Shown here one piece after another: positions 19,274 through 49,387 of a stretch of DNA of 64,000 bases. The position numbers and the translations under genes were made by a program. The notes beneath the pieces are model-generated. The model worked only from the letters and a program-made list of their open reading frames with translations. It did no database searches and was not told where the DNA came from. Position 1 is the stretch's first letter; every line of letters starts with the position of its first letter. This stretch comes from Planctomycetota bacterium (GTDB taxonomy: Bacteria > Planctomycetota > MHYJ01 > WSZJ01): assembly GCA_038060895.1 (NCBI GenBank), contig JBBTCT010000022.1, positions 229,301 through 293,300 on the forward strand, given 5' to 3'.

Positions 19274-21091
19274 TTACTTCGCTCCCAACGTCCTCGCCCG
19301 AACAAGGTAAACCCAGACCTCCCGCCCCTTCGCCCCGTTCCTTGTGACCGCCGAGGCCACGAACGCTCTCCCGTCCTGCAGATGCGCGTCGCATCCCAGC
19401 GACACGACCTCGCAGGTCGGCGTCTGCACGGCGCCCCCTGTCTCGGACTCGGTCTCCAGTGCCTCCGCCATCGAGGCTTCGGCCAGACCCGACTGAAGCT
19501 TCACCTGCAGCCGTCCCTCGGTGGCCTGGAGGACGCCGGCGTGGAGAAGGAAGCCGTCGTTCAGCGAATCGATGACGGGATCCCAGGCCTTGGCGCCCCA
19601 GGCGATTTCCACGTCGTGCTCCGCGACGAAATCGGCGTGGCGGCCGCGAAGCGAATGGAAAGGACTCCCGGTGCGGCCGAGCGCGGACGACTGGGCGACG
19701 AGGCGCGCGGTCCCTTTCTGCACGAGCCCGAGGATGTCGCCGAAAAGCGCGTCGGGGAGCCCGCCCGCCCGCTCCAGGACGTCGCGGCGGGCGAGCCACT
19801 CGGACTCGGGGAACGCGAGAAGCCACGACTCGGCCGCGAGGTTCGCGCCAAGGCGCAACTCCAGGTCGGTCAGCGTGCGCCGGATCTTGTCCTGCACTTC
19901 CGGCGGCGCGTGCACGACGAGGTCGTCGCCGATGATGGCGTAGCGGCAGCCGTCTTCGCTCCAGGTTTCTTCGCCGGTGCCGGCCTTGATCCGCTCGTCC
20001 AGTTCGTCGAGGTCCAGGCAGGTCGGATCGGGACCCGGGCCACATCGGATTCCCCCTCCGTTCTCGGGCGGATCGTTCAGCCCCAGATGGGGGGGCCTGC
20101 GATCGAACCAGGGGAGGCGCAGCAGAGCGCCGATGCTGTAGGCACGGAAGACCTCCGCGTTTCCCGCCCGCTCGGCGACGGCGTCGGAAGCGCCCTCGAC
20201 GCGTGCGCGCAGGAGGACGGCCGTGGTCCAGCCCGGAGTGAAGGGGCGGTAATCGGTCGCAGCGAGGAGGAGGGTCCGGCCCGGCTGAAGCGCGACGTAG
20301 GTGCGGATTTCCGTGGAATCCATGCGCGGAAGTTCGAGGCGTCCGCCGGACGCCGCCGGGAGTTTGAAATCGGCCAGCTCGGCCAGGCGCGCGGTCTGGA
20401 TCAGGAGCTCGAGGTGCAACAGGTCCTCGCCCGCCGAAAAATGCGGCCGCATCTCCAGGACCGCACCTTCCTGAAGTTCGTCCATGATCGGGTCGGCGAT
20501 CGCAGACTGCTGCGCAATCTCGATGTCGAAATCTCTCACATAGGTCTTCCGCCGGAGCGACGACGCAACCGCGTAGCGCCCCCCGCCCCCGCGGGCGACC
20601 AGCCGGTGCGCCACCCGGCCGCGCGCCTTGTCAGCCGCCGCGGCCCGAAGCCCCGCCGCCGCCGCTTCGTCCAGCAATCCCGGCGCAAGCCCGTCCGCAA
20701 CCCCGGGCGCCAATTCCACCATCTCCATCTCCACCACGATCGTCCGCGCCGCCCGCTTTTCGAGCAGCTCGAGCGCTGCGGCAATCGACTGAAGCACTTC
20801 CGGCCCCGCCGTCACGCGCAGCGTCCCGTTGGCGTACTCGAGCGTGTCCACGCCGCTGTCCCACGCGCCGGCATTCACGGTCTGGCCGAGGAGAAGCGCG
20901 ATGCTGTCTCCGGTGCCCTCCGTCTCGGGGGCCGCGCCCACCGGGGGCTCGTAAACGACAAAGCCGATCCGCGGCCCGCGCTTTTCGGGACGAGGGTCCG
21001 TCAGGGAGCGCAGATCCCACGTGCGGCGCTCCTGCGCGGAAGCGGCCGTTGCGAAGGCGAGGACGGCGAGGATGGCGATTGAGACCCGCAT
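19274..21091 (-). CDS. secreted protein with two secretin-like modules (paralogue 1)
   Basis: The start 'MRVSIAILAVLAFATAASA' (ATG 21091) overlaps the upstream stop as ATGA. Each module has a Secretin_N-like 'L.V.A.PEV...I...L..L' segment. That is followed by 'RDFDIEIAQQSAIADPIMDELQEGAVLEMRP' or 'EHDVEIAWGAKAWDPVIDSLNDGFLLHAGV'. Confidence 0.75.
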   Translation of the reverse strand: MRVSIAILAVLAFATAASAQERRTWDLRSLTDPRPEKRGPRIGFVVYEPPVGAAPETEGTGDSIALLLGQTVNAGAWDSGVDTLEYANGTLRVTAGPEVLQSIAAALELLEKRAARTIVVEMEMVELAPGVADGLAPGLLDEAAAAGLRAAAADKARGRVAHRLVARGGGGRYAVASSLRRKTYVRDFDIEIAQQSAIADPIMDELQEGAVLEMRPHFSAGEDLLHLELLIQTARLAELADFKLPAASGGRLELPRMDSTEIRTYVALQPGRTLLLAATDYRPFTPGWTTAVLLRARVEGASDAVAERAGNAEVFRAYSIGALLRLPWFDRRPPHLGLNDPPENGGGIRCGPGPDPTCLDLDELDERIKAGTGEETWSEDGCRYAIIGDDLVVHAPPEVQDKIRRTLTDLELRLGANLAAESWLLAFPESEWLARRDVLERAGGLPDALFGDILGLVQKGTARLVAQSSALGRTGSPFHSLRGRHADFVAEHDVEIAWGAKAWDPVIDSLNDGFLLHAGVLQATEGRLQVKLQSGLAEASMAEALETESETGGAVQTPTCEVVSLGCDAHLQDGRAFVASAVTRNGAKGREVWVYLVRARTLGAK

Positions 21092-22899
21092 CAGCGCACC
21101 TCCGGAAAGCGGACCCGGATGAGGAGAAGGAGCGTTTCGGCGGGGCCTTCGCGTCGCGCCTCCGTCACCGCCGTCCACTCGCCGGCCTTGACGGTCGAGT
21201 CCGTCCGGATTTCGAGCAGGTCGATCGTGGTCCGGTGGATGTCGCCGCCGTGCTCCGCCCCGGTTCCAAATGCTGCGATTTCCGAACGCCACCCGAACTG
21301 GCCCTGGAGTTCCACCCGCGCGCGCCCGCCAGCGTCGGCCGCAAAGGGCCTCACGTCAAGCAGGAGCCCTTCGCGCAGGACGTCGTTGACCGGGTCCGTC
21401 GCCGCCGCTTCCTGCGCAATCTCGACGTCGCGGTCGCGCACGAAGAGCGACTCGGCGCCCGCGAACGCGTGGACGCGCTGGCCGGTGAGCCCGAGAGCCG
21501 TCGCGCCTGCGACCACGCGCGCACGGTCGCCCTTGCGCGCCGCCGCGAGAACGTCCGCCGCCGGGAGGTCGCCGCGCTCCCTGCCCTCGAGGGCCACCAC
21601 GACCGCGTCCACCGCGACCCGCTTCAGCCGGAGTTCGGCCATTCCCTTGAGCGCCGCTTCCGTCGCTTCCAGGATCCCCTGCGGTGCGACGGCCATGATG
21701 CGGTCGTGCCTGAAGCGCAGTTCGCGGCCTTCCACCGACCAGGCGTCCTCCCCGCCGGCCGACTGGCGGAGCAGCGCCCCGAGAGTGTCGTCGTCGAGCC
21801 CGGGATTGCGCGGGTCTTCGATGAAGATGACGCCGCCCTGCTGTTCGTCCCAGTCCGAGAGGTCCAGCCGCTGCCCGGGGAAATCCGTCACGTTCCATTG
21901 GAGGGTGCCGGCCTCGAGGAAGCGCATCTTGAGATCGTCGAGGCCCGCCGCGAGATCGCCGAGGGGCTCTTCGACGCGCTTGGCGCGGACCAGCGCCACG
22001 AGCGTCCAGCCGTTCTCGATGCCTTCGACGCCGCCGGGGACGAGCAGGACGGTGCGCCCCGAAGGGCACGGCCACGTCCCGGCCGCGAACCAGGCCGCGC
22101 GCGAGGGGAGCTGGATCTTTCCCTCGGGTTTCGCCTTCGCGTCGAATTCGAGCACCGTGCCCGGGCGGGCGCACTGGAAGCGGTACTCCAGGAGGACCGT
22201 CGCGCCGTCGGGGGCGAGCACCGGCCGCACGTCGAGCACGGTCCCATCCAGCACTTTCTGCACGAACGGGTCGGCGACCGTGGCCGCCTGCGCAATTTCG
22301 ATGTCGTAGTCCACCACCAGTTGCCGCTCGCGCACGTCGGCCGCGTGAAACCGAAGCCCCGGCGCGCCGCCCGATCGCAGCACCGCCACTGTCCGCCCGC
22401 GCGTCCCGCCCGCCGCCGCTTCCCGCAACGACTGCTCCTGCGCATCCGTCACGACGCCCGCTTCGAGCCCGGCCGTTTCAAGCACCCCCGGCGCCAGCAG
22501 CATGACCTCCGCATCCACCACCACCCGGCGCGCGCCGATCCGCGCGAGCACGTTCAGGGCCGCGACGATCTTCTCCTGGGCCTGCTTCGTCTGCTTGACC
22601 GTCATCCACCCGTCGCCGGCGATGTCGAGCGACGCGTCCCCCGCTTCCCACGACTCCGGCTCGACCATCCGCTGGATCGCCCAGGTCAGCGTCTCGGCGT
22701 CGAAGGCGGCCACTTCCTCGTACTCCTCGCCGTTCTCAACGGCCGAAGTATCCGGAATGGTTTTCAGGCTCAGCCTCGGTCCCGGCTTCGAACTGCCCGT
22801 AGCCCGGAGCGCGCGGACGTCGTGCGTGCGCGTCACAAAGCCAGAGTCCTCGGCCCAGGCAAGTCCCGCGGCGAGGAAGAGGACGGCGATCGGTCGCAT
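21091..22899 (-). CDS. secreted protein with two secretin-like modules (paralogue 2)
   Basis: Start 'MRPIAVLFLAAGLAWA' (ATG 22899). Motifs are 'VDYDIEIAQAATVADPFVQKVLDGTVLDVRP' and 'RDRDVEIAQEAAATDPVNDVLREGLLLDVRP'. Colinear with paralogue 1. Confidence 0.75.
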   Translation of the reverse strand: MRPIAVLFLAAGLAWAEDSGFVTRTHDVRALRATGSSKPGPRLSLKTIPDTSAVENGEEYEEVAAFDAETLTWAIQRMVEPESWEAGDASLDIAGDGWMTVKQTKQAQEKIVAALNVLARIGARRVVVDAEVMLLAPGVLETAGLEAGVVTDAQEQSLREAAAGGTRGRTVAVLRSGGAPGLRFHAADVRERQLVVDYDIEIAQAATVADPFVQKVLDGTVLDVRPVLAPDGATVLLEYRFQCARPGTVLEFDAKAKPEGKIQLPSRAAWFAAGTWPCPSGRTVLLVPGGVEGIENGWTLVALVRAKRVEEPLGDLAAGLDDLKMRFLEAGTLQWNVTDFPGQRLDLSDWDEQQGGVIFIEDPRNPGLDDDTLGALLRQSAGGEDAWSVEGRELRFRHDRIMAVAPQGILEATEAALKGMAELRLKRVAVDAVVVALEGRERGDLPAADVLAAARKGDRARVVAGATALGLTGQRVHAFAGAESLFVRDRDVEIAQEAAATDPVNDVLREGLLLDVRPFAADAGGRARVELQGQFGWRSEIAAFGTGAEHGGDIHRTTIDLLEIRTDSTVKAGEWTAVTEARREGPAETLLLLIRVRFPEVR

Positions 22900-22990
22900 G
22901 AAGCGGTCTCCCGGGTGAATTGGCAGGGCGTCCCCCGGTGCATGAGACGGCCCGACGGGGGTGCGGGTCAAGCGCATTTCTGAAGTTCTG

Positions 22991-23030
22991 GGCTGGCATG
23001 GGCCGGCATGAGCTGGCGTTGGCTTAGTTC
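22991..23030. repeat. tandem 10-mers GGCTGGCATG GGCCGGCATG AGCTGGCGTT GGCTTAGTTC
   Basis: Read directly. Same family and orientation as the left arm at 32372-32432. Confidence 0.7.
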
Positions 23031-23228
23031 AGCAGGAAGACCAAGACCCGTACAGAGGGTGGGCTGAAACGCCAGTGACTCGGGGCCGGCCAGGGGACTA
23101 TACTCTGGTCGGGGGAGATTTTTCCGAGTGGACCGCTGCTTTGCGCTGAGATCGCTGGTGCGGGAGGGAGAAGTAATGAGCGACCTGCTCTGCGTTGGAC
23201 TTTCGAAACGCTCCGCCCCCTCTCGTGT

Positions 23229-23252
23229 GCAAGCAAGCAAGCAAGCAAGCAA
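23229..23252. repeat. tetranucleotide microsatellite (GCAA)x6
   Basis: Read directly: gcaagcaagcaagcaagcaagcaa. It lies in the divergent intergenic region between the secretin-like operon and the EBP gene. Confidence 0.95.
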
Positions 23253-23364
23253 GGTAACCCACCTCTCAGCGCTGTTTGCGCGCCGCCGAAAGTCGAGATG
23301 CGGAAGACCGCATGGACGCCAGATGTCGCTGTGCCTCCCAGTCTGAAGGTTTCAATGCCAAGTT

Positions 23365-24924
23365 TTGCCTGGTGCCTACGAGAGGAAATCGCCCATGGAA
23401 CGATTTGAGGCCGCACGTCGCGCACGCGCAGTTCTGCAAAATCTGGTCATCGCGGCGGCTCCGGCTGGTCAAATCCTGAATGCCACGCTTCGCGAGTGCC
23501 TCCTCCTGACTGGGGCGCGAACCGCGCTCTTCATTGGCGCCGCCGAGGTCCCAGAGCACCTTCGAAGCGTTCCCATGACCTTCGATGGACCGGGAAAGTG
23601 GCCGCCGCTTTCACCGAAACTGCTCGAAACGGTCATGCGTACGGCGAAGCCCTGGGTTCCCGTGGCAACGCCCGCGGATGGAAATGGCACTCCACCCCAC
23701 GTCTCCGAAGTGCTGTGCCTGGGCGATCGTTTCATGGGGGTCGCAGGGTTCATGCCCTGCTCGTTGGAAACTCTCGGTGAAGCGGGGCGTGAACTGCTCA
23801 CAGAGCTCCTACAGTCCATCGCCGAAGCTCTCTCCGCGGCCGTGTACCAGACGGCAATCGCCCGATTGGAGTCGGACCTGCGGCTTGCGAGAGTTGGCAA
23901 TGCCCTCACGCCGCTACCTCTCGTCGGCGGACCGACGAAGCTGCAGTCAAAGCGGCTGGTCGGCAATTCATCCCAGATGCGCGATTTGGACGGACGGATC
24001 GATCGTGCAGCCGCCACCGATGCAACGGTCCTGATCCAGGGGGAAACAGGAACGGGGAAGGAACTTGTCGCCCAGGAAATTCACGCCCGTTCGCCGCGGC
24101 GGCGGGGCCCGTTCGTCGATCAGCACATGGGAGCCTTGCCCGACGACCTGATCGAAGCGGTCATCATGGGGTACGTCAAGGACATCCACTCGCAAGCCCA
24201 CAAAGACAAGCCCGGCCAGTTCGAGCTAGCCGACAAGGGCACCTACTTCATGGACGAGGTCGGGCTGACCACCCTGATCGTGCAGGAGAAATTTCTGCGT
24301 GTTCTCCAGGAGCGAAAGGTCCGCCGCATCGGGTCGGAAGTGTCGTTCGATTTCGACACGCGCATCATTGCGGCGAGCAATCGCGATCTGCAGGAACTCG
24401 TCCGTGAAGGAAAAATGCGTGAGGACTTTTTCTACCGGCTCAAGGTCGTGACCATTCCCATCCCCCCGCTGCGTCACCATCTCGAGGACTTGCCGGCACT
24501 GTTCGAGTATTTCACCGAGCGCCTCGCCTGCAAGTGGAGCCTGCCCGCGCTTCGCGACCACAAATTCGATTCCGCCTGGGCCGCTCTCCTCGGGGGATGG
24601 TCGTGGCCCGGAAACGTTCGGGAACTTGAAAACACCGTTGAGGAGGTCGTAACGAATTCGGGAGGCGCGCCAAAGCTCGAGGAACTGGAAAAGATCATGG
24701 ACGCGAAGCGGAATGCGGCCGGGATCGAGGAGGCAGCGTCCGGCGAGCGGATTTCGCACGCCAAGCGGATGGAGAATGCCGAAGCGAACTTCCTGCGAAG
24801 CGACCTGCGCGAGAGCAACGGCAGCGTCCGCAAGGCGGCAGAGAAGAACGGCCTCTCGGAGCCGACCATGCGAAGGAAGGCAACCCGGTATCACCTCTCG
24901 ACTTCGTCAGGCGCTCAGAAATGA
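23365..24924 (+). CDS. sigma-54-interaction-domain (AAA+) transcriptional regulator, GAF-like N-terminus, Fis-type HTH; GAFTGA motif absent
   Basis: 'VLIQGETGTGKELVAQEIH', 'GTYFMDEVG', 'RIIAASNRDLQELVREGKMREDFFYRLKVVTIPIPPLR', 'WPGNVRELEN' and the HTH 'SVRKAAEKNGLSEPTMRRKATRY'. An alternative start is ATG 23395. Confidence 0.85.
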   Translation: MPGAYERKSPMERFEAARRARAVLQNLVIAAAPAGQILNATLRECLLLTGARTALFIGAAEVPEHLRSVPMTFDGPGKWPPLSPKLLETVMRTAKPWVPVATPADGNGTPPHVSEVLCLGDRFMGVAGFMPCSLETLGEAGRELLTELLQSIAEALSAAVYQTAIARLESDLRLARVGNALTPLPLVGGPTKLQSKRLVGNSSQMRDLDGRIDRAAATDATVLIQGETGTGKELVAQEIHARSPRRRGPFVDQHMGALPDDLIEAVIMGYVKDIHSQAHKDKPGQFELADKGTYFMDEVGLTTLIVQEKFLRVLQERKVRRIGSEVSFDFDTRIIAASNRDLQELVREGKMREDFFYRLKVVTIPIPPLRHHLEDLPALFEYFTERLACKWSLPALRDHKFDSAWAALLGGWSWPGNVRELENTVEEVVTNSGGAPKLEELEKIMDAKRNAAGIEEAASGERISHAKRMENAEANFLRSDLRESNGSVRKAAEKNGLSEPTMRRKATRYHLSTSSGAQK

Positions 24925-25081
24925 CGAAGCGCCGCTCATCTTTGACGAAACGCACTTCGTAAGTCGAAGCCCTGTGGTGCGCGAAACTTGTGTCGCGTGC
25001 CGCACCGGCCGGTTCCGTTGAATTCGTCAAGAGTGAGCGAGTGCCGGATCCTTTTCCGGATCCCGCCCCGGGGAATGTGAG

Positions 25082-25096
25082 TGGCCCGCGGCTTGC
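25082..25096 (+). promoter_or_regulatory. sigma-54-type -24/-12 promoter candidate TGGCCCG-N4-TTGC
   Basis: TGGCCCGCGGCTTGCG matches the consensus TGGCACG-N4-TTGCW, with GG and GC at the canonical spacing. It ends 13 nt before ATG 25110. Confidence 0.5.
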
Positions 25097-25109
25097 GATA
25101 AAGATTCGC

Positions 25110-25637
25110 ATGGGAGCCTGCTGCGGCGGATGCGATGAGGGCGCGAGTTGCGCTGGCAAACAGCCTGCGGCGGTTTTGCTGCCTCCGGACCTGATCATCC
25201 CGGGACCCGACCCGGATCGCACGGGAGTGCTTGAGCTGGAAGAAGTTCCGGATGAGACGACGAGCGATGAATCGGTCCCGCTGATCACGAAGTCGCTCGG
25301 CCCCACCCGGCCAGTCGCACTTAACACCCGTCTCGTCCTCACGGACGGCGGAACGACTGTCAGCGAAGCGCTGCACGTCCGGGGTTGCAACTCGGGTAGC
25401 GTCGACCTTGTCGTCTTCCTTCTGAATTCGATCTCGACCATAGACGCGGTCCTGGAGGGCGGAATCGACGGAGAAAACTACCGCCGGATTTCCTCGACGC
25501 GATTCAGCGCAGCCGGGTTTGCGAGGTTCCGATTTCGCCGGGTGGGTTACCGCTTTCTCCGAGTGTATTACAGCGCTTCCGGCTCGGCCGGTGGCGTCGC
25601 TGTCCTGACCACAACGATCAACGGTTCATCCAACTGA
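25110..25637 (+). CDS. cassette protein A: Cys-rich N-terminus, Pro/acidic linker, beta-rich C-domain
   Basis: 'MGACCGGCDEGASCAGKQ...'. The C-domain 'AVLEGGIDGENYRRI...YRFLRVYY' is paralogous to protein B. The track ORF extends to GTG 24990; the start chosen here follows the promoter candidate. Confidence 0.6.
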   Translation: MGACCGGCDEGASCAGKQPAAVLLPPDLIIPGPDPDRTGVLELEEVPDETTSDESVPLITKSLGPTRPVALNTRLVLTDGGTTVSEALHVRGCNSGSVDLVVFLLNSISTIDAVLEGGIDGENYRRISSTRFSAAGFARFRFRRVGYRFLRVYYSASGSAGGVAVLTTTINGSSN

Positions 25638-25656
25638 CCCCCAAAGGAGGACGTTC

Positions 25657-25980
25657 ATGGCCTATGCCAAGCTCTTTACAAACTTGTCCGTCGTCAACGG
25701 AGTTTCGCAGTACTCGCAACCGTTCAGTATGGCGGGGAACAACGCGTTCCGGTTCGGAGTGACGGTCTTCAGCAACTCCGCGACGAGTCTGACCTGTACG
25801 CCCCAAGGTTCCATCGACGGACAAAACTGGCGGGACCTCACCGCCGCAACCGGGCTCGTCGTCGGGTGGGCCTCGTTCACGCAAGGGAGCATCACCGACC
25901 TGATGGTGAGACTCGTCTGCACGGTCGTAGGAACCGGGACGATCGTCCTGGCCGCTGATGTGTACACGAGCCAGCAGTAG
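25657..25980 (+). CDS. cassette protein B: 107-aa beta-rich protein (possible major subunit)
   Basis: Strong SD (AAAGGAGG, 6 nt before the ATG). 'TPQGSIDGQNWRDLTAA...LMVRLVC' parallels protein A. A stable hairpin follows the gene. Confidence 0.7.
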   Translation: MAYAKLFTNLSVVNGVSQYSQPFSMAGNNAFRFGVTVFSNSATSLTCTPQGSIDGQNWRDLTAATGLVVGWASFTQGSITDLMVRLVCTVVGTGTIVLAADVYTSQQ

Positions 25981-26026
25981 GAACACGAAGAGTCGGAGCA
26001 GTCGCAACCCTCGGACCAGTCGGGGC

Positions 26027-26055
26027 GGAGGAGAGCCGTCGTCCGGCTCTCTTCC
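26027..26055 (+). other. intercistronic GC-rich hairpin (12-bp stem, 5-nt loop, no U-tract)
   Basis: GGAGGAGAGCCG tcgtc CGGCTCTCTTCC, read directly. It lies between cassette genes B and C. Confidence 0.6.
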
Positions 26056-26100
26056 GTCCGGCTTCCGAAATAAAAACATCGTCGTTACAAAGAGGTCGAA

Positions 26101-26667
26101 ATGCCCGAACTTCCGCTGACCTACGTCTACGAGCCGCCGAACTGGCTTGCGCGCGCGAACGCCTACGGCTCCTGCGTCGGCGGCCGGAGATTCTCCGTCG
26201 CGCATCAGACACCCGGGACGACCGTGACGGGGCAGACCTCCTTCGTGGCCACGACTCCCACGTTCCTGATCAACCAGGCGAGCGCCGCGCACCGCGTCGT
26301 GCTCTCGAACTTCGCGCTCTGCCAGATCGGGACGCCCGCGGGAGGGACGATCCACGTGGCGCTGGCGATCGACTCGTCGGATCGATACTCCTCAGGAGGG
26401 ACGTCGATCACCCCGCAGGCGACCGCGATGCCCAGTGCGCTCACCGCGGGCTTCAGTTTCCGGTTCAACCCGACCGCCGCCGCCGCCAGCGCCGTCCGGA
26501 TCCTGAACGAGTGGACCCAGCCCGCGTGGGCCGGTTCGATTTTCAATCCCGACCTGCATGACGGCGTCCTGATCGGATACACGGGTTCGATTCTGATCTA
26601 TACGTGGGCGGCCACGACGGCGCCGACGTGGATCATCGGCGGCTTCGACGTCCTGGAGGACGAGTAG
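26101..26667 (+). CDS. cassette protein C: 188-aa beta-rich protein
   Basis: SD 'AAGAGG' precedes the start. Ser/Thr/Ala/Gly-rich with alternating hydrophobic pattern ('VVLSNFALCQIG', 'ILIYTWAATTAPTWIIGGFDV'). The stop lies 1 nt before the gene D start. Confidence 0.7.
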   Translation: MPELPLTYVYEPPNWLARANAYGSCVGGRRFSVAHQTPGTTVTGQTSFVATTPTFLINQASAAHRVVLSNFALCQIGTPAGGTIHVALAIDSSDRYSSGGTSITPQATAMPSALTAGFSFRFNPTAAAASAVRILNEWTQPAWAGSIFNPDLHDGVLIGYTGSILIYTWAATTAPTWIIGGFDVLEDE

Positions 26668-26668
26668 G

Positions 26669-27553
26669 ATGCCGACGATCCGAGACCTGAGCCAGGGCGG
26701 CGTCCAGCCTCACGCCTCGACGCACATGTCGGGAGGTTCCGACGCGATCAAGCTCGACGAGCTCGCCGCGCCTACGGACGTCACGACGCTGAATGTCTCC
26801 ACTTCGGCTCACGGGCTGACGCCGAAGCTCCCGAACGATGCGACCAAATACCTCGACGGGACTGGCGCGTTCAGCGTCCCTGCGGGAAGCGGCGGCTCCG
26901 GCTCGTACCTCGGGACCACCGTGAAGACTTCCGGCACGACGTTCACGACCGGAGCCTCCACCAACACGATCCGTGTACGCCTTCAGGCCGGCGGCGGTGG
27001 AGGCGGCGGCGCTGCGTCGAATCTATTCAGCCCCGCCGGCGGCGGTGGCGCGGGCGGATACGCGGAAAAGACATTCGCCGTGAGCCCCTCGACCGCCTAC
27101 ACCTGCGCGATCGGCGCCGCAGGAGCCGGGGGCTCGGCAGGAAACAACAACGGCTCGGCCGGAGGGAACTCCACTTTCGCAGTCGGCGGAACGACCGTCA
27201 CAGCTTTCGGCGGCAATGGCGGAATCGGAACTGCCGGCGGAAGCGGCTCATCCGCGATCTTCGTTCTGGGGGGCGCTGCCGCATCCGTCTCCACGAGCGC
27301 CGACCTGAACGCAAGCGGCTCGCCGGGAGGGTTCGGGACAGGAAGTGGCGGCATTGGTGGTAGCGGCGCCTCGGGAGCCGGAGGTTCGTGCCTCTTCGGC
27401 GCCGGCGGAAACAGCCTCAATACCCAGAGCGGCGGCGCCGCGGGCGTCGGTTACGGCGCGGGCGGAAGCGGCGGCTGTTCGCTTTCCAGCGGCGGAAACG
27501 TTGCCGGCGGCGCAGGACTCGCCGGGGTGATCGTCGTCGAGGAGTTCTCGTAG
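26669..27553 (+). CDS. cassette protein D: phage-tail-fibre-like N-terminus + glycine-rich domain
   Basis: 'HASTHMSGGSDAIKLDELA...STSAHGLTPKLPNDATKYLDGTGAFS' is followed by a 'GGGGGGGAAS...GGGGAGGYAEK...GGNGGIG' glycine-rich domain. Confidence 0.8.
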   Translation: MPTIRDLSQGGVQPHASTHMSGGSDAIKLDELAAPTDVTTLNVSTSAHGLTPKLPNDATKYLDGTGAFSVPAGSGGSGSYLGTTVKTSGTTFTTGASTNTIRVRLQAGGGGGGGAASNLFSPAGGGGAGGYAEKTFAVSPSTAYTCAIGAAGAGGSAGNNNGSAGGNSTFAVGGTTVTAFGGNGGIGTAGGSGSSAIFVLGGAAASVSTSADLNASGSPGGFGTGSGGIGGSGASGAGGSCLFGAGGNSLNTQSGGAAGVGYGAGGSGGCSLSSGGNVAGGAGLAGVIVVEEFS

Positions 27554-27574
27554 CAAGATCGAGGAGATGAAGTC

Positions 27575-28015
27575 GTGAGCGGAAACGGCTGTTCCTTCTG
27601 GGCCCAGAACGTCTCCCCGGAGACGAGCTGGCCGATTTCCTCCGAAGCGCCGGCGGGGATGGACGGAATGTCCTGGTCGAGCGAGTGCGTCTGGGACGCG
27701 ATGTCCTTCCCGCAGGGAGTCCTGCAGGTCTCCGCGCCCGTCGAGATCCGGAACCCAAACAACACCGTGATCTTCTCCATCGTGATCATCGGCCAGAGCA
27801 GCGGGTCTCCTCAGCTCGCCATCGTATTCTCCGGCGCCAATTGTCCGGAGGGTCCCTACACCACGCTGAGCGGGCCGACCAACATCACGACCTTGGGCCT
27901 GCAGTTCCTAGGCGCCGTGACCGGAATCAGGTTCCCCTACGTCCGGGCAGAAGTCATGTCGTCGAACGGGAGTGCGGTGGCGGGGAGCGGGTGCTTTTGT
28001 GTCTCGGAAGCCTAA
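27575..28015 (+). CDS. cassette protein E: 146-aa beta-rich, Cys-containing protein
   Basis: GTG start with SD 'GAGGAG' 9 nt upstream. 'VIFSIVIIGQSSGSPQLAIVFSG...IRFPYVRAEV' is the same style as A and B. Confidence 0.65.
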   Translation: MSGNGCSFWAQNVSPETSWPISSEAPAGMDGMSWSSECVWDAMSFPQGVLQVSAPVEIRNPNNTVIFSIVIIGQSSGSPQLAIVFSGANCPEGPYTTLSGPTNITTLGLQFLGAVTGIRFPYVRAEVMSSNGSAVAGSGCFCVSEA

Positions 28016-28173
28016 AGCCAGCGTTCGCTCGACAAACCAACCGTCCAAAGCGCCATCGGTGTAGCACATAACGAGAAGAGGTTTCGCGCGACTGTCTCTC
28101 ATCAAAGTCAAGTCAGAGCTCTCCAGCGCCTGACGGGTCTTCGAGTCGATTTTCCCTAGAGAAGGAGGTACCG

Positions 28174-28656
28174 ATGCCAGATCCAGAGATTGTGTCAATT
28201 GACGAAATCTTGCGTGCTAATGAGCTAAGGGATCCGCTGACCGGGGTCAGAACCGGCGGCACCGTGCTACACCCTGGCACTGGCGTGAAACTTCGGAAAG
28301 ATCGGCCTTCAGGATCCATTGGAATCAACTTGGACACAGGTCAATTGGAGATGCATGACTGGGGGCCGACCGTTGCTGGGCCCAGTACTGATTTCTCAAA
28401 GTTACCTGAACGAATCCGACTCTTTGGGGGAGAAACTGGCGACGGGCCCAGGGTGGGTCGTGACCCAAAGGAGTCTGAGGACCGTGGCGTGGAGATGCTG
28501 CTTCCGGAAGGCGTGAGAAAATTCGTCGCAGGAGATGCGCTGAAGGCAGGTATTGTCTCCATTTCCTTCGAGTTCGGAGGACCTTGGGGCCTTACCGTCA
28601 CGTTTGGAAGGCCGCCTGAGCCGGCTGGGGTCAGACGGAAGGACCTGGAGAAGTGA
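28174..28656 (+). CDS. hypothetical protein (low-GC island)
   Basis: Strong SD (GAAGGAGG, 5 nt before the ATG). 160 aa. No motif recognised. Confidence 0.6.
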   Translation: MPDPEIVSIDEILRANELRDPLTGVRTGGTVLHPGTGVKLRKDRPSGSIGINLDTGQLEMHDWGPTVAGPSTDFSKLPERIRLFGGETGDGPRVGRDPKESEDRGVEMLLPEGVRKFVAGDALKAGIVSISFEFGGPWGLTVTFGRPPEPAGVRRKDLEK

Positions 28657-28760
28657 CGCAATGCGAAACACGATCCATTTCTCGAAGTCGAGGACTGTCT
28701 GGGATGGGATGACTTCCCAGGAGCTAACCGCGCCTCCGTCGAAATCTCAGGAGCACGTCA

Positions 28761-29909
28761 ATGCGAACAGAAGCTTCTAGCGAACTGACTCATTCGTCAA
28801 GGTGGTGTCATCCAGTTACATTTGCACTTGCCTTGTTTCTTGGATGCGCCGCGGGTCAGGGCACCAACGAATCGAAGCCAGAAGAACCCAGGATTCACAA
28901 TTCGGTGGAATTGAGGGACTCGCAAGGGAGGATCCGGCTCTCGATCTGTCTGGATCAAGATGAGTGTCCTCAAATCATGCTATTTGATCCCGCCGGACAC
29001 CCTCGCTCGCGAATTGGACTAAGTTCGGAATTCGAACCCGTAATTCGTATGACGGGTTCGAACGGCGAGGATGCGGTTTCGCTTGGTTTGCGCGAGGATT
29101 CCCCCCAACTCCGGCTGGAGTGTGGCGAGGGACGAAGTGGTATTCGGATCCAGGCTGAAGCAACGCGAGGACCGGAGTTGACGTTGTCGGATGGCGATGG
29201 TTTGGAGCGCGCCCGACTGGCAATTGATCGTGGCGCCCCACAACTTTCGATGTTGGACCCTGGACTCAAGCCTCGCCTGTACCTTGGAACCGAGGTCTCG
29301 ACACCGGATAATTACGGACTCCGCGTCACCTCAGACGACGGCCTTTCCCGCGCGGAGGTTGGCACGACAAAAAACTCGCCGGCGTTCATCCTCGTTTCTG
29401 GAGGCGCTGGCGAATGGTCAGCGCTTGCAATGAGCCGTGGCGGGCACCCGCTGCTAAGCTTTGTCGATTCGACCGACATCGAACGAATTCGAGTCAGCTT
29501 GACGCCTCAACAGGAGTCCGAAGTAGCGCTTTGTAGCGCCGAAGGTCAGATTTCCGTTCTGGCAAGATGTCCGAAGTCGGGTTTCGGGTTGGTCAACTTG
29601 TCCGATGGCGATTCACCGACAGCCGTGTTTCTGGGGAAAGGTTCGTCCGGTGATGTCTTGGCCGGGATCGTTGATGCGGCGGGGTGTAGACGAGCGAGCT
29701 TGTCGCTAACCCCGGAGGACCGAGCTTACGCCTCCGTACAGGATTCGACCGCCTCCTCAGCCTTTCTGACGAACGATGGCAAAGGACTTTGCAAACTCGA
29801 GCTGAATCGAAAGGGAAAGACCAGACTGCTCGCGGGTTTTGACAAGACTGATACAGCATCCTTCATGTCGCTTGATTCGGAGGAAATCGAAACTTGGCGA
29901 TCAAAGTAG
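28761..29909 (+). CDS. lipoprotein built from ~20-aa 'L.L.D..G..R..L' type repeats (low-GC island)
   Basis: Lipobox 'LALFLGCAAG'. Recurring units include 'VELRDSQGRIRLSI', 'IMLFDPAGHPRSRIGL', 'LTLSDGDGLERARLAI' and 'LRVTSDDGLSRAEVG'. Confidence 0.7.
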   Translation: MRTEASSELTHSSRWCHPVTFALALFLGCAAGQGTNESKPEEPRIHNSVELRDSQGRIRLSICLDQDECPQIMLFDPAGHPRSRIGLSSEFEPVIRMTGSNGEDAVSLGLREDSPQLRLECGEGRSGIRIQAEATRGPELTLSDGDGLERARLAIDRGAPQLSMLDPGLKPRLYLGTEVSTPDNYGLRVTSDDGLSRAEVGTTKNSPAFILVSGGAGEWSALAMSRGGHPLLSFVDSTDIERIRVSLTPQQESEVALCSAEGQISVLARCPKSGFGLVNLSDGDSPTAVFLGKGSSGDVLAGIVDAAGCRRASLSLTPEDRAYASVQDSTASSAFLTNDGKGLCKLELNRKGKTRLLAGFDKTDTASFMSLDSEEIETWRSK

Positions 29910-30203
29910 ACTGCGGGGCTGCCATTCTTCTACAGACAGGCTTCAGTAGATGCGGTCGGGCGTCTCGATGGGGTTGAGACGTCGGGTGTAGACGGTTTCG
30001 CGACGTTGTAGACGTCGTAGGGCGACTCTTCCGTTCGGACGGAGCCCAACACCTGGGCTTGCGGGACACCCCGAACCTCCGAACGCAAATCGCTTCGTCC
30101 ACATCCAATTTCCCCAGGAGTCTCATGCCCGCCTTGCTCCGCCTCCCCCGCCAATGCTAAAGTCGCCCTTCCGGGTAACCCAGGGCCCGGTTGAGGGCCT
30201 CTC

Positions 30204-30725
30204 ATGGACGCAACGAAACCGGAAGTCGCCGCTCCAGCACCGCCCGCGCCGCTGGCCGACCCGCGCGTGGACAAGCTCCTTGAAAAGATCGGGATCCTTG
30301 AGCAGCTTTTCGTGAAGCGCATCAAGGACGACCAGGCGCACGCGGCGGCGTACAACACGCTGTACCAGGACATGTCGAAGTACCGGGACGACGCGTTCCG
30401 GGGGGCGCAGAAGTCGCTTCTCAAGGGTCTAGTGCTCATTTACGACACGATGAAGCGGTCCATTTCGGGGATCGGGGACGGGACGGTGCGCGAGATGGTG
30501 AACCTGCACGTCGAGGAACTGCTCGAGCTGCTTCATCGCCACGACGTCGAGCGGATGCCGGACACGCTGGGAAAATTCGACCGGAACGTGCAGCAGGCGC
30601 TGGGGACGGAGCCGGCGGCGACGGCGGAAGAAGATCAGACTGTTGCGCGAGTGGTGCGTGACGGGTTCAAATGGGGGACTCAGGTGTTGAGGCCGCAGGA
30701 AGTAGTGATTAAGGTAAAAAAGTAG
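30204..30725 (+). CDS. GrpE-like nucleotide-exchange factor
   Basis: The C-terminal 'LGKFDRNVQQALGTEPA...DQTVARVVRDGFKWGTQVLRPQEVVIKV' matches the GrpE pattern G.FDP..H.A....V..V...GY....vlRpA.V.V. Confidence 0.7.
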   Translation: MDATKPEVAAPAPPAPLADPRVDKLLEKIGILEQLFVKRIKDDQAHAAAYNTLYQDMSKYRDDAFRGAQKSLLKGLVLIYDTMKRSISGIGDGTVREMVNLHVEELLELLHRHDVERMPDTLGKFDRNVQQALGTEPAATAEEDQTVARVVRDGFKWGTQVLRPQEVVIKVKK

Positions 30726-44541: not shown

Positions 44542-45495
44542 CTAGCGCTTCACATCCCGCTTTGGCGCTTCCAGAGTGAGGCGTTTTCCTTCGGTGCGCT
44601 GGATCGCGTCGAGCATCTTCGCCCCGTCTGACTTCTTCCGGTTGTTGAACGTCCAGAGGTAGGAATCGAGGTACTTCGGAAGGTAGTCATGCCCAACGCC
44701 GTGGAAGATGCCCACGATGGAAGTCTTGAAGTTGGCGAAGAGGCCCTCAACGCCGTTCGTCGTGACGTCCCCACGGGCGTACTCTTCGATGGAGTGGTTG
44801 ACGGTTTCATGCTTCACCATCATCCGCCCTGGCGTGACGTACAGCTTGGATTCGTCTGAGTGAAGCACCGTCCGCTTGGGATCAACGTTCTTCATTACGA
44901 AGCGGCGGATGTCCCGCGCGTTGGCCTTGGGCGCTGGCTTGACGACGGCACGCGCGGACCCTCCACGCTGAACCAGCGCCAGCACGGTTGACTTCTTCAC
45001 GGCCTTGCCACGGCGCGATCCGCGCCCCTTGTGGCCGAAGTAGGTTTCGTCCGCTTCGATGATCCCGGCGAGTGGTGACTTGTCGGAGTTCTGGAGAGCG
45101 TGGCGCACCCGATGGCAGAGAAACCACGCGGTGCGATAACTGCCGAGTTCAAGGTGCCGCTGGATTGCCAGCGCCGAGATTCCTGTCTTGCTGGACGAAA
45201 TGAGGTAGAAGGCCAGCAGCCACTTGTTGAGCGGGATGTGGCTGTCCTCGAAGATCGTGCCAACGGTGCAAGTGAACTGCTTCCGGCACGCCACGCAGAA
45301 CAGCAGCCCCTTGCGAATCTTCTTCTCCGCGTCTGGCTTGAGCCGGGCGACCTTCTCGCGTTCGGTGCAGCCACAGTGCGGGCAAACGGGGCCAGAGGGC
45401 CAGCGCACCGCTTCGATGTAGTTACGCGCGGCGTCCTCGTCTGGGAAGAGAGAGAAGATGTTCGTCAGGCTCACGGCATCGGGCGTCGGGATCAT
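44542..45495 (-). CDS. IS1595-family (ISXO2-like) DDE transposase with N-terminal zinc ribbon
   Basis: 'RWPSGPVCPHCGC...LLFCVACRKQFTCTVGTIFEDSHIPLNKWLLAFYL', 'DETYFG', 'VLHSDESKLY' and 'TNGVEGLFANFK'. SD AAGGAG. Confidence 0.92.
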   Translation of the reverse strand: MIPTPDAVSLTNIFSLFPDEDAARNYIEAVRWPSGPVCPHCGCTEREKVARLKPDAEKKIRKGLLFCVACRKQFTCTVGTIFEDSHIPLNKWLLAFYLISSSKTGISALAIQRHLELGSYRTAWFLCHRVRHALQNSDKSPLAGIIEADETYFGHKGRGSRRGKAVKKSTVLALVQRGGSARAVVKPAPKANARDIRRFVMKNVDPKRTVLHSDESKLYVTPGRMMVKHETVNHSIEEYARGDVTTNGVEGLFANFKTSIVGIFHGVGHDYLPKYLDSYLWTFNNRKKSDGAKMLDAIQRTEGKRLTLEAPKRDVKR

Positions 45496-45562: not shown

Positions 45563-45721
45563 ATTTCAAGCTTAACATTATGATATTAAATAAGTTATGA
45601 CACATTGTCTGCAACGGTTCATTCGGCACGTGCGTTGCAATTCAATCTTGACGCGACCTGATCAACGAACGGTTGCGGCCTTCACTTCCCAAACAACAAC
45701 TCACCGATCGGAGAACGACCC

Positions 45722-46261
45722 ATGAGCAACACATTGGACACAACCATCCGGGTTCAGTGGTCCCCGGCCCCCGGCTCCCCCGAAGCCCTTTCTTCCAACC
45801 GCCGTCTCTCGAAGCTCGCCGCTGCGGCGCTTCACTGCGCCTGGCTGTCCTACATCGCGGCGCTCTTCCTTCCTGCCGCTGTCTACACACCCGGCTACCT
45901 GTGCCTGCTCGGGTCGGCCGTTTCGGTGGTGGTTCTCTGCCTGGGCTCGGTCTCCGCGCTCGTTCCCGCGCTTCTGTTCATCCCGAACCTGGCGATGCTC
46001 CTGAGCCCGATGGTCCTGGCGCGGTCCGTGCGTCGCGGCCGCATGATGCAGGTCCTGAGCGGGCTCAGCGTGGCCGGCGCCATCCTGACCGTTTCGTGCG
46101 GCGCGCTGATCTGCTCCCAGGGGCTCGACACCGGCGGCTGCGGCGGCACGGGCGGACGGAACTCCGATCCGGAGATCGGGTTCTTCATGTGGGTCGTGTC
46201 GGCGGTCTTCCTCGCGGCCGGCACGGTCCTCGCCCGCCGGTCGGAAGGCGCCGCGAAGTAA
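45722..46261 (+). CDS. multi-pass membrane protein, hypothetical
   Basis: Four or more hydrophobic segments, including 'AAALHCAWLSYIAALFLPAAV', 'LLGSAVSVVVLCLGSVSALVPALLFI' and 'FFMWVVSAVFLAAGTVL'. SD GGAGAA. Confidence 0.65.
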   Translation: MSNTLDTTIRVQWSPAPGSPEALSSNRRLSKLAAAALHCAWLSYIAALFLPAAVYTPGYLCLLGSAVSVVVLCLGSVSALVPALLFIPNLAMLLSPMVLARSVRRGRMMQVLSGLSVAGAILTVSCGALICSQGLDTGGCGGTGGRNSDPEIGFFMWVVSAVFLAAGTVLARRSEGAAK

Positions 46262-46811: not shown

Positions 46812-47162
46812 ATGACGACAAGTTCCCTGCCGACGCCGACGGGCGAATCCGTTCCCATGACCAGCTTCCCGGCCTCTGCGCTCAAGAACTCCGCTGCGGA
46901 TGTCCTGGAGATGGTCCTGACCTCCGGCGCCGTTGTCATCACCCGACACGGCAAGGAGAAGGCCGTGATCCTGTCCGTCGAAGCCTACCGGCGACTCGTG
47001 GCTTCCCGCCGCGACGACCTGGACGTTCTACGCGCAAAATTCGGCGGGCTGCTAGCCAGAATGCAGACTCCCGCTGCGCGAAAGGGCGCACGGGCCGCCT
47101 TCGACGCTTCGCCGGATGAAATGGGCAAAGCAGCCGTAAAGGCGGCGCGCCGCCGTGGCTGA
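46812..47162 (+). CDS. Phd/YefM-type antitoxin
   Basis: 'SALKNSAADVLEMVLTSGAVVITRHGKEKAVILSVEAYRRL'. SD AGGAGG. It overlaps the toxin gene by 8 nt. Confidence 0.75.
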   Translation: MTTSSLPTPTGESVPMTSFPASALKNSAADVLEMVLTSGAVVITRHGKEKAVILSVEAYRRLVASRRDDLDVLRAKFGGLLARMQTPAARKGARAAFDASPDEMGKAAVKAARRRG

Positions 47163-47802
47163 CCGCCGCGCCGTCATCACCGTGCTCGCCGGCACGAATG
47201 GCGCCGGCAAGAGCAGCATTGCAGGAGCCACGATTCGTTCGCGCCAGGCGGACTACTACAACCCTGACGAAGCGGCGCGCGCTCACAAGGAAGCGCATCC
47301 GGAGGCGACTGCCGAAGAAGCGAACGCCGCTGCGTGGGAATTCGGCCGCCGCATGCTCGAAGAGGCCGCTCGTGAGCGGAAGAACTTCGCCTTTGAAACG
47401 ACACTGGGCGGCAACACGATCATGTTTCTTCTTGAGAATGCAGCGAATTCCGGTTTGGACGTGCGGATCTGGTACACCGGACTTGCTTCAGTCGAGTTGC
47501 ACCTCAAACGCGTCCGGCAACGGGTCCGCCTGGGAGGTCACGACATTCCCGAGGAAATGATCCGGCGCCGCTATGAGAACGGGCCCCGGAACCTGATCCG
47601 CCTCATGCCGAAGCTCGCCTCGCTGCGCGTCTACGACAACAGTGCCGCAGGGGATCCCGCCGCGGGAGTGGCTCCGAAACCAGTTCTTGTTCTGCAGATG
47701 GAAAAGGGCCGAATTGCCGGGCCGAAGGATCTGTCCCGGACTTCCGAATGGGCGAAATCGATCGTCGCGCGGGCCATGGAACTTCACTCGGCGCCCAGGT
47801 AG
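47155..47802 (+). CDS. zeta-toxin-family P-loop kinase
   Basis: '[15 protein letters not shown]' (Walker A) and 'FAFETTLGG'. About 215 aa. GTG start. Confidence 0.75.
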
Positions 47803-47863
47803 CGACCCCGCTCGGATCGGCATTGTGCTATCCTCCCGCCCCCTCATTTCCGGAACCACCTTG

Positions 47864-49387
47864 ATGCGTTTCGCAGACCTGCACCTGATCGAGCCTCTTC
47901 TCCGCGCCGTGCACGACGAAGGCTATGTCACGCCCACCCCCATCCAGGAAATGTCGATCCCGCACGTGCTGGAAGGGAAGGACCTGCTCGGCTGCGCCCA
48001 GACCGGCACCGGCAAGACGGCGGCCTTCGCACTTCCGATCCTCCAGCGCCTCCACGCCCAGCCCATCCCGAACCCGCGATACGTGCGCGTGCTGGTGCTC
48101 GCGCCCACGCGCGAGCTGGCGACCCAGATCGGCGATTCGTTCCGGACCTACGGGAAACACCTCGGCTTCCGGCACGTCACCATCTACGGCGGCGTCGGCC
48201 AGAACCCGCAGGCACAGGCGCTTCACCGCGGCGTCGACATCGTCGTCGCCACCCCCGGCCGGCTGCTCGACCTGATGCAGCAGGGGTATGCGAAGCTGAA
48301 CCGGGTGGAAGTGCTGGTGCTCGACGAAGCGGACCGGATGCTGGACATGGGGTTCATCCACGACGTGAAGCGGATCATCGCGGCGATCCCGAAGAAGCGG
48401 CAGACGCTTTTTTACAGCGCGACGCTGCCGCGCGAGATCCAGTCGCTGGCGCACGACATCCTGTCGAGCCCGGTTCGCGTCGAGGTCACGCCCGCGGCGA
48501 CGACGGTCGAGAAAATCGCACAGTCGGTGTGCTTCGTGGACAAGGGAAACAAGTTCACGGTCCTTCAGGGGCTTCTGCGCGACACGAAAATTCAGCGCGC
48601 CCTCATTTTCACGCGCACGAAGCACGGCGCGAACAAGCTCGCCAAGCAGCTCAACCAGGTCGGCGTCCGATCCGACGCCATCCATGGGAACAAGGCGCAG
48701 ACGGCGCGCGAGCGCGCGCTGGCGGACTTCGGGCGAGGCAAGATCCGGGTCCTGGTCGCCACCGACATCGCCGCGCGCGGGATCGACGTCGAGGGCATCA
48801 CGCACGTCTTCAACTACGACCTCCCCAACGTCCCCGACAGCTACGTGCACCGCATCGGGCGCACCGCGCGAGCGGGGGCTTCCGGCGAAGCGATTTCATT
48901 CTGCTCCCCCGAGGAGCGCGGCGAGCTGTCCGACATCGAGCGGCTGATCCGGATGACGCTTCCGACGCGGCCGGGACAGCCGGAACGGCCCGCGGCGGGG
49001 CGGCCGGGCGGCCAATCGGCCGGGCGGGCAGGCGGGCGCAGCTTCGGCTCCTCAGGGCAGATGGGCGGCTCCTCGAATCGCTTCAATCGCCCGGGACAGG
49101 GACATGGAGGCCACGCGCACCGCTCGCAGGGCGCGAAGCCGGCCGGTCACGGCCACTCCGGGTCCCACGGCCACCACACTTCCGGCGGTCACGCCGCTTC
49201 CCACGTCCAGGCAGCCTCCCACGGCTCAACTCCCGCGCACCCGGCTCCGCACTCCCACGCCGCGCCTCACTCGCACGGAGCTCCGCGATCCGCCGGCGGT
49301 TCGCATCAGCACGGCGGCGCGCCGGCTCACGGCCAGGGCCGCTTCGCGGGAAAACTCCGGGGACGGCATCCCCGGAAGGGGCGTTAG
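47864..49387 (+). CDS. DEAD-box ATP-dependent RNA helicase (RhlE-like) with His/Gly/Ala-rich basic tail
   Basis: Q-motif 'YVTPTPIQ', 'AQTGTGKT', 'PTRELA', '[13 protein letters not shown]', 'SAT' and '[10 protein letters not shown]'. Confidence 0.92.

Follow-up and report, generated by a model that had tools for sequence, protein, structure and literature searches.

A bacterial enhancer-binding protein with a rewritten GAFTGA loop beside a conserved -24/-12 promoter element in Planctomycetota

How a sigma-54-type promoter might be served by a regulator without a recognizable GAFTGA loop is the question raised by one locus in a 64,000-nucleotide (64-kb) stretch of Planctomycetota DNA (contig JBBTCT010000022.1), referred to below as the window. 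Promoters of the sigma-54 type are silent without an activator. The GAFTGA motif at the tip of the L1 loop of bacterial enhancer-binding proteins (bEBPs) counts as the unvarying hallmark by which these activators are defined, and it serves as a hard filter in regulon surveys. In the window, a bEBP homolog in which only that loop has been rewritten is encoded on the plus strand directly upstream of a five-gene operon (g1-g5), and the same loop is rewritten in a second, diverged genome. The original prediction noted that such a loop and the -24/-12 promoter downstream of the gene pull in opposite directions. This tension is now sharper, since the altered loop, the promoter and three upstream repeats are all kept at a related locus, L017, while sister operons are headed by bEBPs with canonical-type loops. 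The reading that we favor, to which we assign slightly less than an even chance, is that the protein binds the upstream repeats and may still act on the sigma-54 holoenzyme via a non-canonical loop tip.

The open reading frame (ORF) at 23365..24924 (plus strand) was confirmed as full length, and residues are numbered below in the 519-aa translation of this ORF. Its L1 segment (E264-A278; 24154..24198, plus strand; phmmer and MAFFT alignments) reads EAVIMGYVKDIHSQA, whereas 50 of the 50 nearest homologs read ESELFGHxKG[AS][FY][TS][GD]A in a gap-free register. In phmmer alignments with the solved chains of FleQ, NifA and ZraR, which are ungapped across L1, G-Y-V-K-D-I-H-S-Q-A of the window protein stands opposite G-H-E-K-G-A-F-T-G-A. 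The MAFFT alignment with the 50 homologs likewise places DIHSQA (24181-24198, plus strand) opposite G[AS][FY][TS][GD]A in every case, with zero indels. The ESELFGH stretch that precedes the motif is replaced by EAVIMGY, and the tip fits neither GAFTGA nor the relaxed pattern G[AS][FY][TS]xA. H275 and S276 occupy the places of PspF F85 and T86 (query residue = PspF residue + 190), and thus the tip retains an aromatic ring and a hydroxyl, with His-Ser in place of Phe-Thr. One more substitution lies outside the L1 coordinates: H254 (24124-24126) replaces the switch Asn, a position with N in 44 and S in 6 of the 50 homologs. An indel concealing a GAFTGA motif, which the original prediction had named as a possible refutation, and likewise a frameshift were ruled out by the gap-free alignments together with a six-frame scan, in which no GAFTGA-like peptide was found in any frame of the 64-kb window.

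Apart from this loop, the protein is a regular member of its family, as had been proposed, and the motifs GETGTGKE, FMDEVG, REDFFYRL and WPGNVRELEN are all present. The sigma-54-interaction domain of the AAA+ type (residues 198-364; 23956..24456, plus strand) covers positions 1-167 of the 168 positions of the PF00158 Sigma54_activat profile (E=6.7e-54; 182.5 bits vs a gathering cut-off of 20.2), and the similarity of the AAA+ core to solved structures reaches E values of about 1e-53. The Walker A motif (G226-K232), Walker B residues D297 and E298, sensor I N339 and arginine fingers R352 and R358 are intact, and sensor II R419 is kept in the adjoining lid domain, just beyond 23956..24456; all these residues match near-invariant columns of the 50 nearest homologs. 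Among the 83 columns conserved in at least 90% of 50 generic bEBPs, the window protein deviates at 13, including eight of the 11 conserved L1 columns (residues 264-278) vs only five of the 72 elsewhere (Fisher p=4.5e-6); the latter five (L296M, L310F, V330F, F351M, L355F) are all conservative. Because the deviations concentrate in L1, the loop change does not look like decay.

Searches with the full-length protein returned only the protein itself and generic bEBPs at no more than 45% identity. An alignment of g3, used as bait in a search of one genome per species, yielded 15 related loci in five Planctomycetota metagenome-assembled genomes (MAGs), each of which holds three or four copies. The gene order g1-g2-g3-g4 is kept among these loci (tblastn), and a same-strand bEBP gene lies directly upstream at all loci with sufficient upstream sequence, save L012, L013 and L020. 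Six related loci have the bEBP gene immediately upstream of g1-g2-g3-g4. At five of them the regulator, which occupies the same position before the same operon as the window gene, has kept a canonical-type loop: GAFTGA in L009 and L021, GAFSGA in L010, GSFTGA in L015 and GGFSGA in L016. In the AAA+ core these cluster-associated paralogs share 31-46% identity with the window protein, and outside L1 the window protein is the most canonical of the set; it keeps all the catalytic residues that have been lost in L016 (6818-8410; sensor I N to R, plus D331R), L010 (3802-4944; arginine finger R352L, sensor I N to S) and L009 (3-812; sensor I N to H).

The sixth locus, L017, encodes a regulator (P0134, 367 aa) that is 54-60% identical to the window protein and carries the loop GMHSTA. 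Its loop region is EPVLMGYLKGMHSTASKDK, compared with EAVIMGYVKDIHSQAHKDK in the window, and the derived loop common to both proteins can be written as LMGYLKGMHSTASKDK against IMGYVKDIHSQAHKDK. Of KDIHSQ, the conservation of which in orthologs had been suggested earlier as a check, the His-Ser pair recurs in this second genome. The L017 protein scores 185.4 bits with PF00158 and passes the HTH_8 threshold (24.0 vs 22), and both variant proteins retain both arginine fingers, sensor I and Walker B. Since a protein of 54-60% identity carries the same derived loop, sequence comparison marks the His-Ser loop as an old, maintained character of a small clade, one that by parsimony is older than the split of the two lineages. 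A search of 5.8 billion clusters with a profile built from the window and L017 proteins gave no third member of this clade (the pair scored 668 bits, the next match 273). In a neighbor-joining tree of the AAA+ core the branches are long and the nesting of the variant pair among the canonical paralogs is unsettled, and the tree was not used.

The region between the regulator gene and g1 contains the second part of the evidence. Three copies of CGCTCA-N4-TGACGAA, each exact at 13 of the 13 specified bases, lie within 128 nt between the bEBP stop region and g1. No further copy was found within one mismatch elsewhere in the 64 kb, and none of 300 composition-matched simulations reached such a triple. 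These putative upstream activator sequences (UAS), with positions counted from the predicted transcription start, are UAS1 (CGCTCAGAAATGACGAA; 24912..24928, plus strand; centered at about -188), which overlaps the bEBP stop codon; UAS2 (CGCTCATCTTTGACGAA; 24933..24949, plus strand; about -167), located 21 nt from UAS1 on the same helix face; and the inverted UAS3 (CGCTCACTCTTGACGAA on the minus strand; 25023..25039; about -77). UAS1 is identical to its L017 counterpart at 14 of 17 positions and UAS3 at 12 of 17. The -24/-12 match, TGGCCCGCGGCTTGCG, is located at 25082-25097, 158 nt past the bEBP stop codon; the candidate element TGGCCCgcggcTTGCG (TGGCCC-N5-TTGCG; 25082..25097, plus strand) is conserved in L017 and predicts a transcription start at about 25107-25109. 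A consensus scan predicted no sigma-70-type promoter in 24925-25110, no terminator-like site was found on the plus strand between the bEBP gene and g1, and Rfam gave no match in the 22-31 kb interval.

The promoter had been described in the original prediction as near-consensus. Taken by itself within the window, the match is no better than chance, as 13 two-mismatch matches were counted vs 18 expected, and TGGC-N7-TTGC occurs twice vs 1.7 expected. The element is credible because it is conserved at related loci, and not by enrichment across the window. The control regions of the window and L017 align without gaps over about 190 nt, and the four control elements, which had been defined on the window sequence before L017 was examined, are much better conserved than the DNA around them: identity is 72% in the three repeats and the promoter vs 37% in the spacers (p=4e-6). 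The two regions share uninterrupted identical stretches of 14 nt (CAGAAATGACGAAG) and 10 nt (GAGTGGCCCG), lengths reached in none of 2000 shuffles, and the whole block GAGTGGCCCG..GCTTGC is conserved in L017. Across all loci (249 kb), GGCCCG-N4-TTGC occurs six times vs 1.8 expected, and five of the six sites, all on the coding strand, have a g1 operon 27-836 nt downstream. A comparable -24/-12 match stands before the operon in L017 and L013 and, among the loci with canonical-loop paralogs, in L009, L015, L016 and L021 (looser in L015 and L016) but not in L010; seven loci keep the GG and GC dinucleotides at a conserved spacing. At L009, where the regulator carries GAFTGA, separate dyad repeats lie a short way upstream of the -24/-12 match; this UAS, the one that is well defined at a canonical locus, differs in sequence from those of the window. 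As by parsimony the loop change predates the split of the two lineages, while the elements and their spacing were kept in surrounding DNA that has been randomized, this comparison indicates that the sigma-54-type promoter and the sites were under selection after the loop had changed, that is, together with a regulator lacking GAFTGA.

In the reading that we favor, a working enhancer-binding AAA+ ATPase would control the adjacent g1-g5 operon. Its Fis-type helix-turn-helix (HTH) domain would bind the three 17-bp sites, two in tandem 21 bp apart and one inverted (-188, -167 and -77), and a ring governed by the unique N-terminal domain would assemble there. The ring would then act on the sigma-54 holoenzyme at TGGCCC-N5-TTGCG, with sigma-54 contacted by an L1 tip that has His-Ser for Phe-Thr (motif x[IM]HS[QT]A). 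Three steps are thus proposed, namely occupancy of the repeats by the protein, use of the promoter by the sigma-54 holoenzyme, and formation of the open complex driven by the His-Ser loop, the last being the weakest. Since promoters of this type need an activator, and since both the promoter and the ATPase machinery have been kept, activation by the window protein would be the simplest account. The corresponding evolutionary proposal, that the lineage of the window protein and P0134 of L017 swapped GAFTGA for x[IM]HS[QT]A and still activates the sigma-54 holoenzyme at an enhancer-dependent promoter, is held tentatively, and we would bet mildly against it.

The comparison with canonical bEBPs of the group-V, PspF-like or single-component type (PspF, NorR, ZraR, NtrC1, FleQ) is largely in line with such a role. 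The window protein shares with them the AAA+ core, ATPase motifs, lid and Fis-type HTH, and its locus shares their layout, with the gene beside its target operon, sites at about -77 to -190 and a -24/-12 promoter. It differs from them in DIHSQA (GMHSTA in L017), in EAVIMGY for ESELFGH, in His for the switch Asn and in an N-terminal domain without relatives. Some variation of the loop itself is known. The natural variants GAFSGA, GAFSEA and GAFTHA were judged compatible with activation by the authors of the Desulfovibrio vulgaris study, and among them are Ser at the Thr position and residues other than Gly at motif position 5. In GMHSTA of L017, only the changes A to M and F to H fall outside the variation known to be tolerated. 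The sole precedent found for a degenerate GAFTGA motif combined with -24/-12 targets is D. vulgaris DVUA0100 (GVATGV, with no Phe), for which comparative regulon reconstruction predicts sigma-54 promoter targets. DVUA0100 differs from the window protein in keeping the Thr and both flanking Gly residues, and the two are homologous at the family level only.

Several points weigh against activation through this loop. In mutagenesis of PspF, any replacement of A84, F85, T86, G87 or A88 abolished sigma-54 binding and open complex formation while sparing the ATPase, changes at G83 were likewise dead, and reviews describe most GAFTGA mutants as incapable of activation. The experimentally characterized enhancer-binding proteins (EBPs) without GAFTGA all act at sigma-70 promoters or as repressors. 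A sigma-54 factor that has simply co-evolved away from GAFTGA is not expected in the genome of L017, because the same genome contains L015 and L016 with their canonical-type loops. His in place of the switch Asn could affect coupling in the window protein. Scans of the window and of the retrieved loci gave no rpoN gene and no RpoN box. Planctomycetes are treated as a sigma-54-bearing phylum (PMC12316311). The clade has only two members, which leaves the evidence for loop conservation thin. Finally, the ATG of g1 in the window lies 13 nt past TTGC (25097-25112), and a leaderless or nearly leaderless mRNA is predicted, whereas the leader kept in L017 (8987-9040) is about 40 nt long and includes the Shine-Dalgarno sequence GAGGAGA; by comparison, some 36 nt of the g1 leader seem to be missing from the window.

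In the first alternative, the protein binds the sites and cannot activate by itself. It would be a repressor or anti-activator, or else it would tether mixed rings to the DNA as a subunit dependent on a canonical-loop bEBP partner (cf. HrpR/HrpS), and the sigma-54 promoter would be fired only by, or jointly with, another activator. By the mutational data such a loop should not engage sigma-54, yet ATPase activity and oligomerization survive changes in L1; several paralogous bEBPs with canonical-type loops are present in these genomes (L015 and L016 alongside L017), and repression by bEBPs, beside activation, is known from PexR and FleQ. Such a regulator would also account for the retention of both the -24/-12 element and the binding sites. 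However, the AAA+ cores of the paralogs reach no more than 31-46% identity with that of the window protein, and the UAS of L009 differs in sequence, so that cross-binding or mixed rings are not obviously favored; a second bEBP gene is absent from the neighborhood in the window. Moreover, a pure repressor would have no need for arginine fingers, sensor I and Walker B, all of which both variant proteins keep. We consider this explanation unlikely, though one to be taken seriously.

The second alternative is that of an atypical EBP acting on the sigma-70 holoenzyme, with the -24/-12 match as an inherited relic or as a sequence overlapping a sigma-70 promoter. All characterized natural EBPs without GAFTGA act in this way: Escherichia coli TyrR, Pseudomonas putida PhhR, Rhodobacter capsulatus HupR/NtrC, Caulobacter NtrC, Brucella abortus NtrX, Myxococcus xanthus HsfA and Vibrio cholerae VpsR combine bEBP architecture with an unrecognizable GAFTGA motif, as the window protein does. 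In addition, the TTGC of both variant loci is followed by an A/T-rich hexamer with a weak likeness to a -10 element, GATAAA in the window and TATAGA in L017, which would fit a transcript beginning at the window ATG. The likeness does not extend to the features that go with sigma-70 dependence in these proteins. L1 carries deletions in the NtrC examples from Rhodobacter and Caulobacter, and Walker B is degenerate in VpsR, whereas the loop of the window protein is of full length without a gap and its DE pair is intact. Targets of VpsR are without -24/-12 elements; here the target carries one, together with distal sites, the GG/GC pairs and their spacing being kept in seven loci and forming one of the most conserved blocks between the two variants. 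In place of the -35/-10 targets typical of atypical EBPs, the scan of 24925-25110 gave no sigma-70-type promoter, and no -35-like hexamer was seen. The spread of the sites from -77 to -188 is enhancer-like rather than of a class I or class II layout. Action on sigma-70 is accordingly rated as improbable. A decaying copy, or a pseudogene in the making in which L1 was hit by chance, is very improbable: the near absence of orthologs, the unique N-terminal domain, the lowered GC content at third codon positions (GC3) of the gene, the damaging look of the window-specific G273D and N254H and the loss of the g1 leader would fit it, but the ORF is intact and of full length, with catalytic residues preserved and changes confined to L1, the loop, HTH, sites and promoter are all shared with L017 at 54-60% protein identity, and the target operon is under purifying selection.

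What is at stake differs between these explanations. If the protein activates, the rules of sigma-54 engagement need widening, and censuses based on the motif miss real activators; the contact of Phe-Thr with sigma-54 region I and the -12 fork would not be obligatory. A His-Ser tip or some other geometry of engagement would suffice, perhaps at the price of changed coupling or regulation. If it does not activate, a previously undescribed kind of regulator, negative or partner-dependent, would be present at a sigma-54 enhancer. Either the loop is less indispensable than believed, or a new mode of control exists for a sigma-54-type promoter. The target in both cases would be a multi-copy Planctomycetota operon of small proteins without a family and a hypervariable, glycine-rich, fiber-like protein, driven by a bEBP or an extracytoplasmic function (ECF) sigma factor depending on the copy.

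The regulator gene itself probably begins downstream of the mechanical ORF start. The TTG at 23365 is the start assigned mechanically, with the stop at 24924, and the true start is likely ATG 23395, which would give a protein of 509 aa (23395..24924, plus strand). This start is favored because a Shine-Dalgarno-like GAGAGGA precedes it, other gene callers agree, and the L017 protein begins alike (MERFEAA in the window, MERIEAA in L017). The NCBI annotation (MEK7468811.1, 449 aa) begins at Met71 and is probably too short. Among NCBIfam models the protein falls between those of the NorR, AtoC, NifA, NtrC and PspF types, far under every equivalog cut-off, and for this reason it is placed within the family without being any of its named members.

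The N-terminal domain (about 186 aa; 23395..23952, plus strand) is presumably sensory or regulatory. An exhaustive phmmer search of 1.84 billion representative proteins found no relatives of it beyond the protein itself, it has no Pfam match, and the L017 ortholog is without it. In the AlphaFold2 model the N-terminal 190 or so residues are not confident (predicted local distance difference test, pLDDT, <50), yet a long linker helix is predicted at residues 139-181, at the end of the domain. From residue 200 through the C-terminal three-helix HTH, including the AAA+ domain, pLDDT exceeds 90. In Pfam, the PF00158 region is followed by the AAA+ lid domain and then by weak matches to Fis-type HTH domains, HTH_50 (E=0.005) and HTH_8 (E=0.05), both below the Pfam threshold. 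The assignment of the C-terminal HTH (24817..24900, plus strand) is aided by the phmmer alignment with ZraR, which extends through the DNA-binding domain to residue 507, and by the model. The recognition region NGL[ST]EPTMRRK is common to the window protein (NGLSEPTMRRK) and L017.

A (GCAA)6-7 microsatellite at 23226-23256 precedes the bEBP start codon by about 140 nt and could make the promoter region of the regulator itself prone to slippage. Divergent from the bEBP gene, on the minus strand at 19274-22977, is a tandem pair of paralogs (672 and 628 aa, 31% identical); no family was found for them, save a far sub-threshold PilN/secretin-like match in one.

The target operon consists of g1 (175 aa; 25110..25637), which has a conserved N-terminal M.CC..C....C motif and the same start in NCBI entry MEK7468812.1; g2 (107 aa; 25657..25980), a paralog of the C-terminal domain of g1; g3 (188 aa; 26101..26667), the most conserved member; g4 (294 aa; 26669..27553), glycine-rich and tail-fiber-like; and g5 (146 aa; 27575..28015), probably the last conserved member, all on the plus strand. 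The five genes are annotated as hypotheticals in the NCBI MAG. Searches of Pfam, PHROGs, PADLOC and NCBIfam were empty for the operon proteins beyond Gly_rich_2 and tail-fiber-like matches of g4 and a weak match of g2, and no operon relatives were found on viral contigs. Variants of g3 in other metagenomes are 86-93% identical in protein and 80-84% in DNA, and because protein identity exceeds DNA identity, g3 is taken as a real gene under purifying selection; its single-sequence structure model (pLDDT 29) was unusable. Between copies of g4 only about 27 N-terminal residues are kept (MPT[IL]RDLSQG..H.STH.SGGSDA), followed by a hypervariable glycine-rich body, an arrangement that can be likened to a receptor-binding fiber.

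The g1-g2-g3-g4(-g5) module (25110-28015 in the window; loci L007-L021) is multi-copy and confined to a few Planctomycetota MAGs. GC3 of the bEBP gene is 0.73, below that of the neighboring genes (0.85-0.9 in the flanks); the GC content of the bEBP gene and operon is lower too (window 23000-30000), the 28-30 kb stretch has 56% GC, and the module lies just upstream of grpE (30204-30725). These features are consistent with the bEBP gene and operon being a mobile or recently acquired module. The regulators also differ between operon copies, as a gene of the ECF-type sigma-70 family replaces the bEBP gene at L012 (2591-3226) and L020 (684-1040). At L013 (1-1230) there is no adjoining regulator and a RluB-like gene lies upstream; this locus carries TGGCCCGCGGGTTGCT and, besides, a motif, CCGCCAGGGAAATGACG, that resembles the L017 site. 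As L013 and L017 come from one genome, the variant-loop regulator of L017 may serve a second, unlinked promoter there.

Two further features lie elsewhere in the window. The best sigma-54-like site, CGGCACGTGCGTTGCA at 45598-45639, is located in an AT-rich spacer that adjoins a transposase gene of the IS1595 family (44542-45495, minus strand). It precedes by 85 nt an unannotated ORF (45722-46261) with a GGAG ribosome-binding site, and hints that sigma-54 is used elsewhere in the organism. A zeta-toxin/AAA_33-like gene (47155-47802) directly precedes the gene of a DEAD-box helicase (47642-49387), whose mechanical ORF it overlaps.

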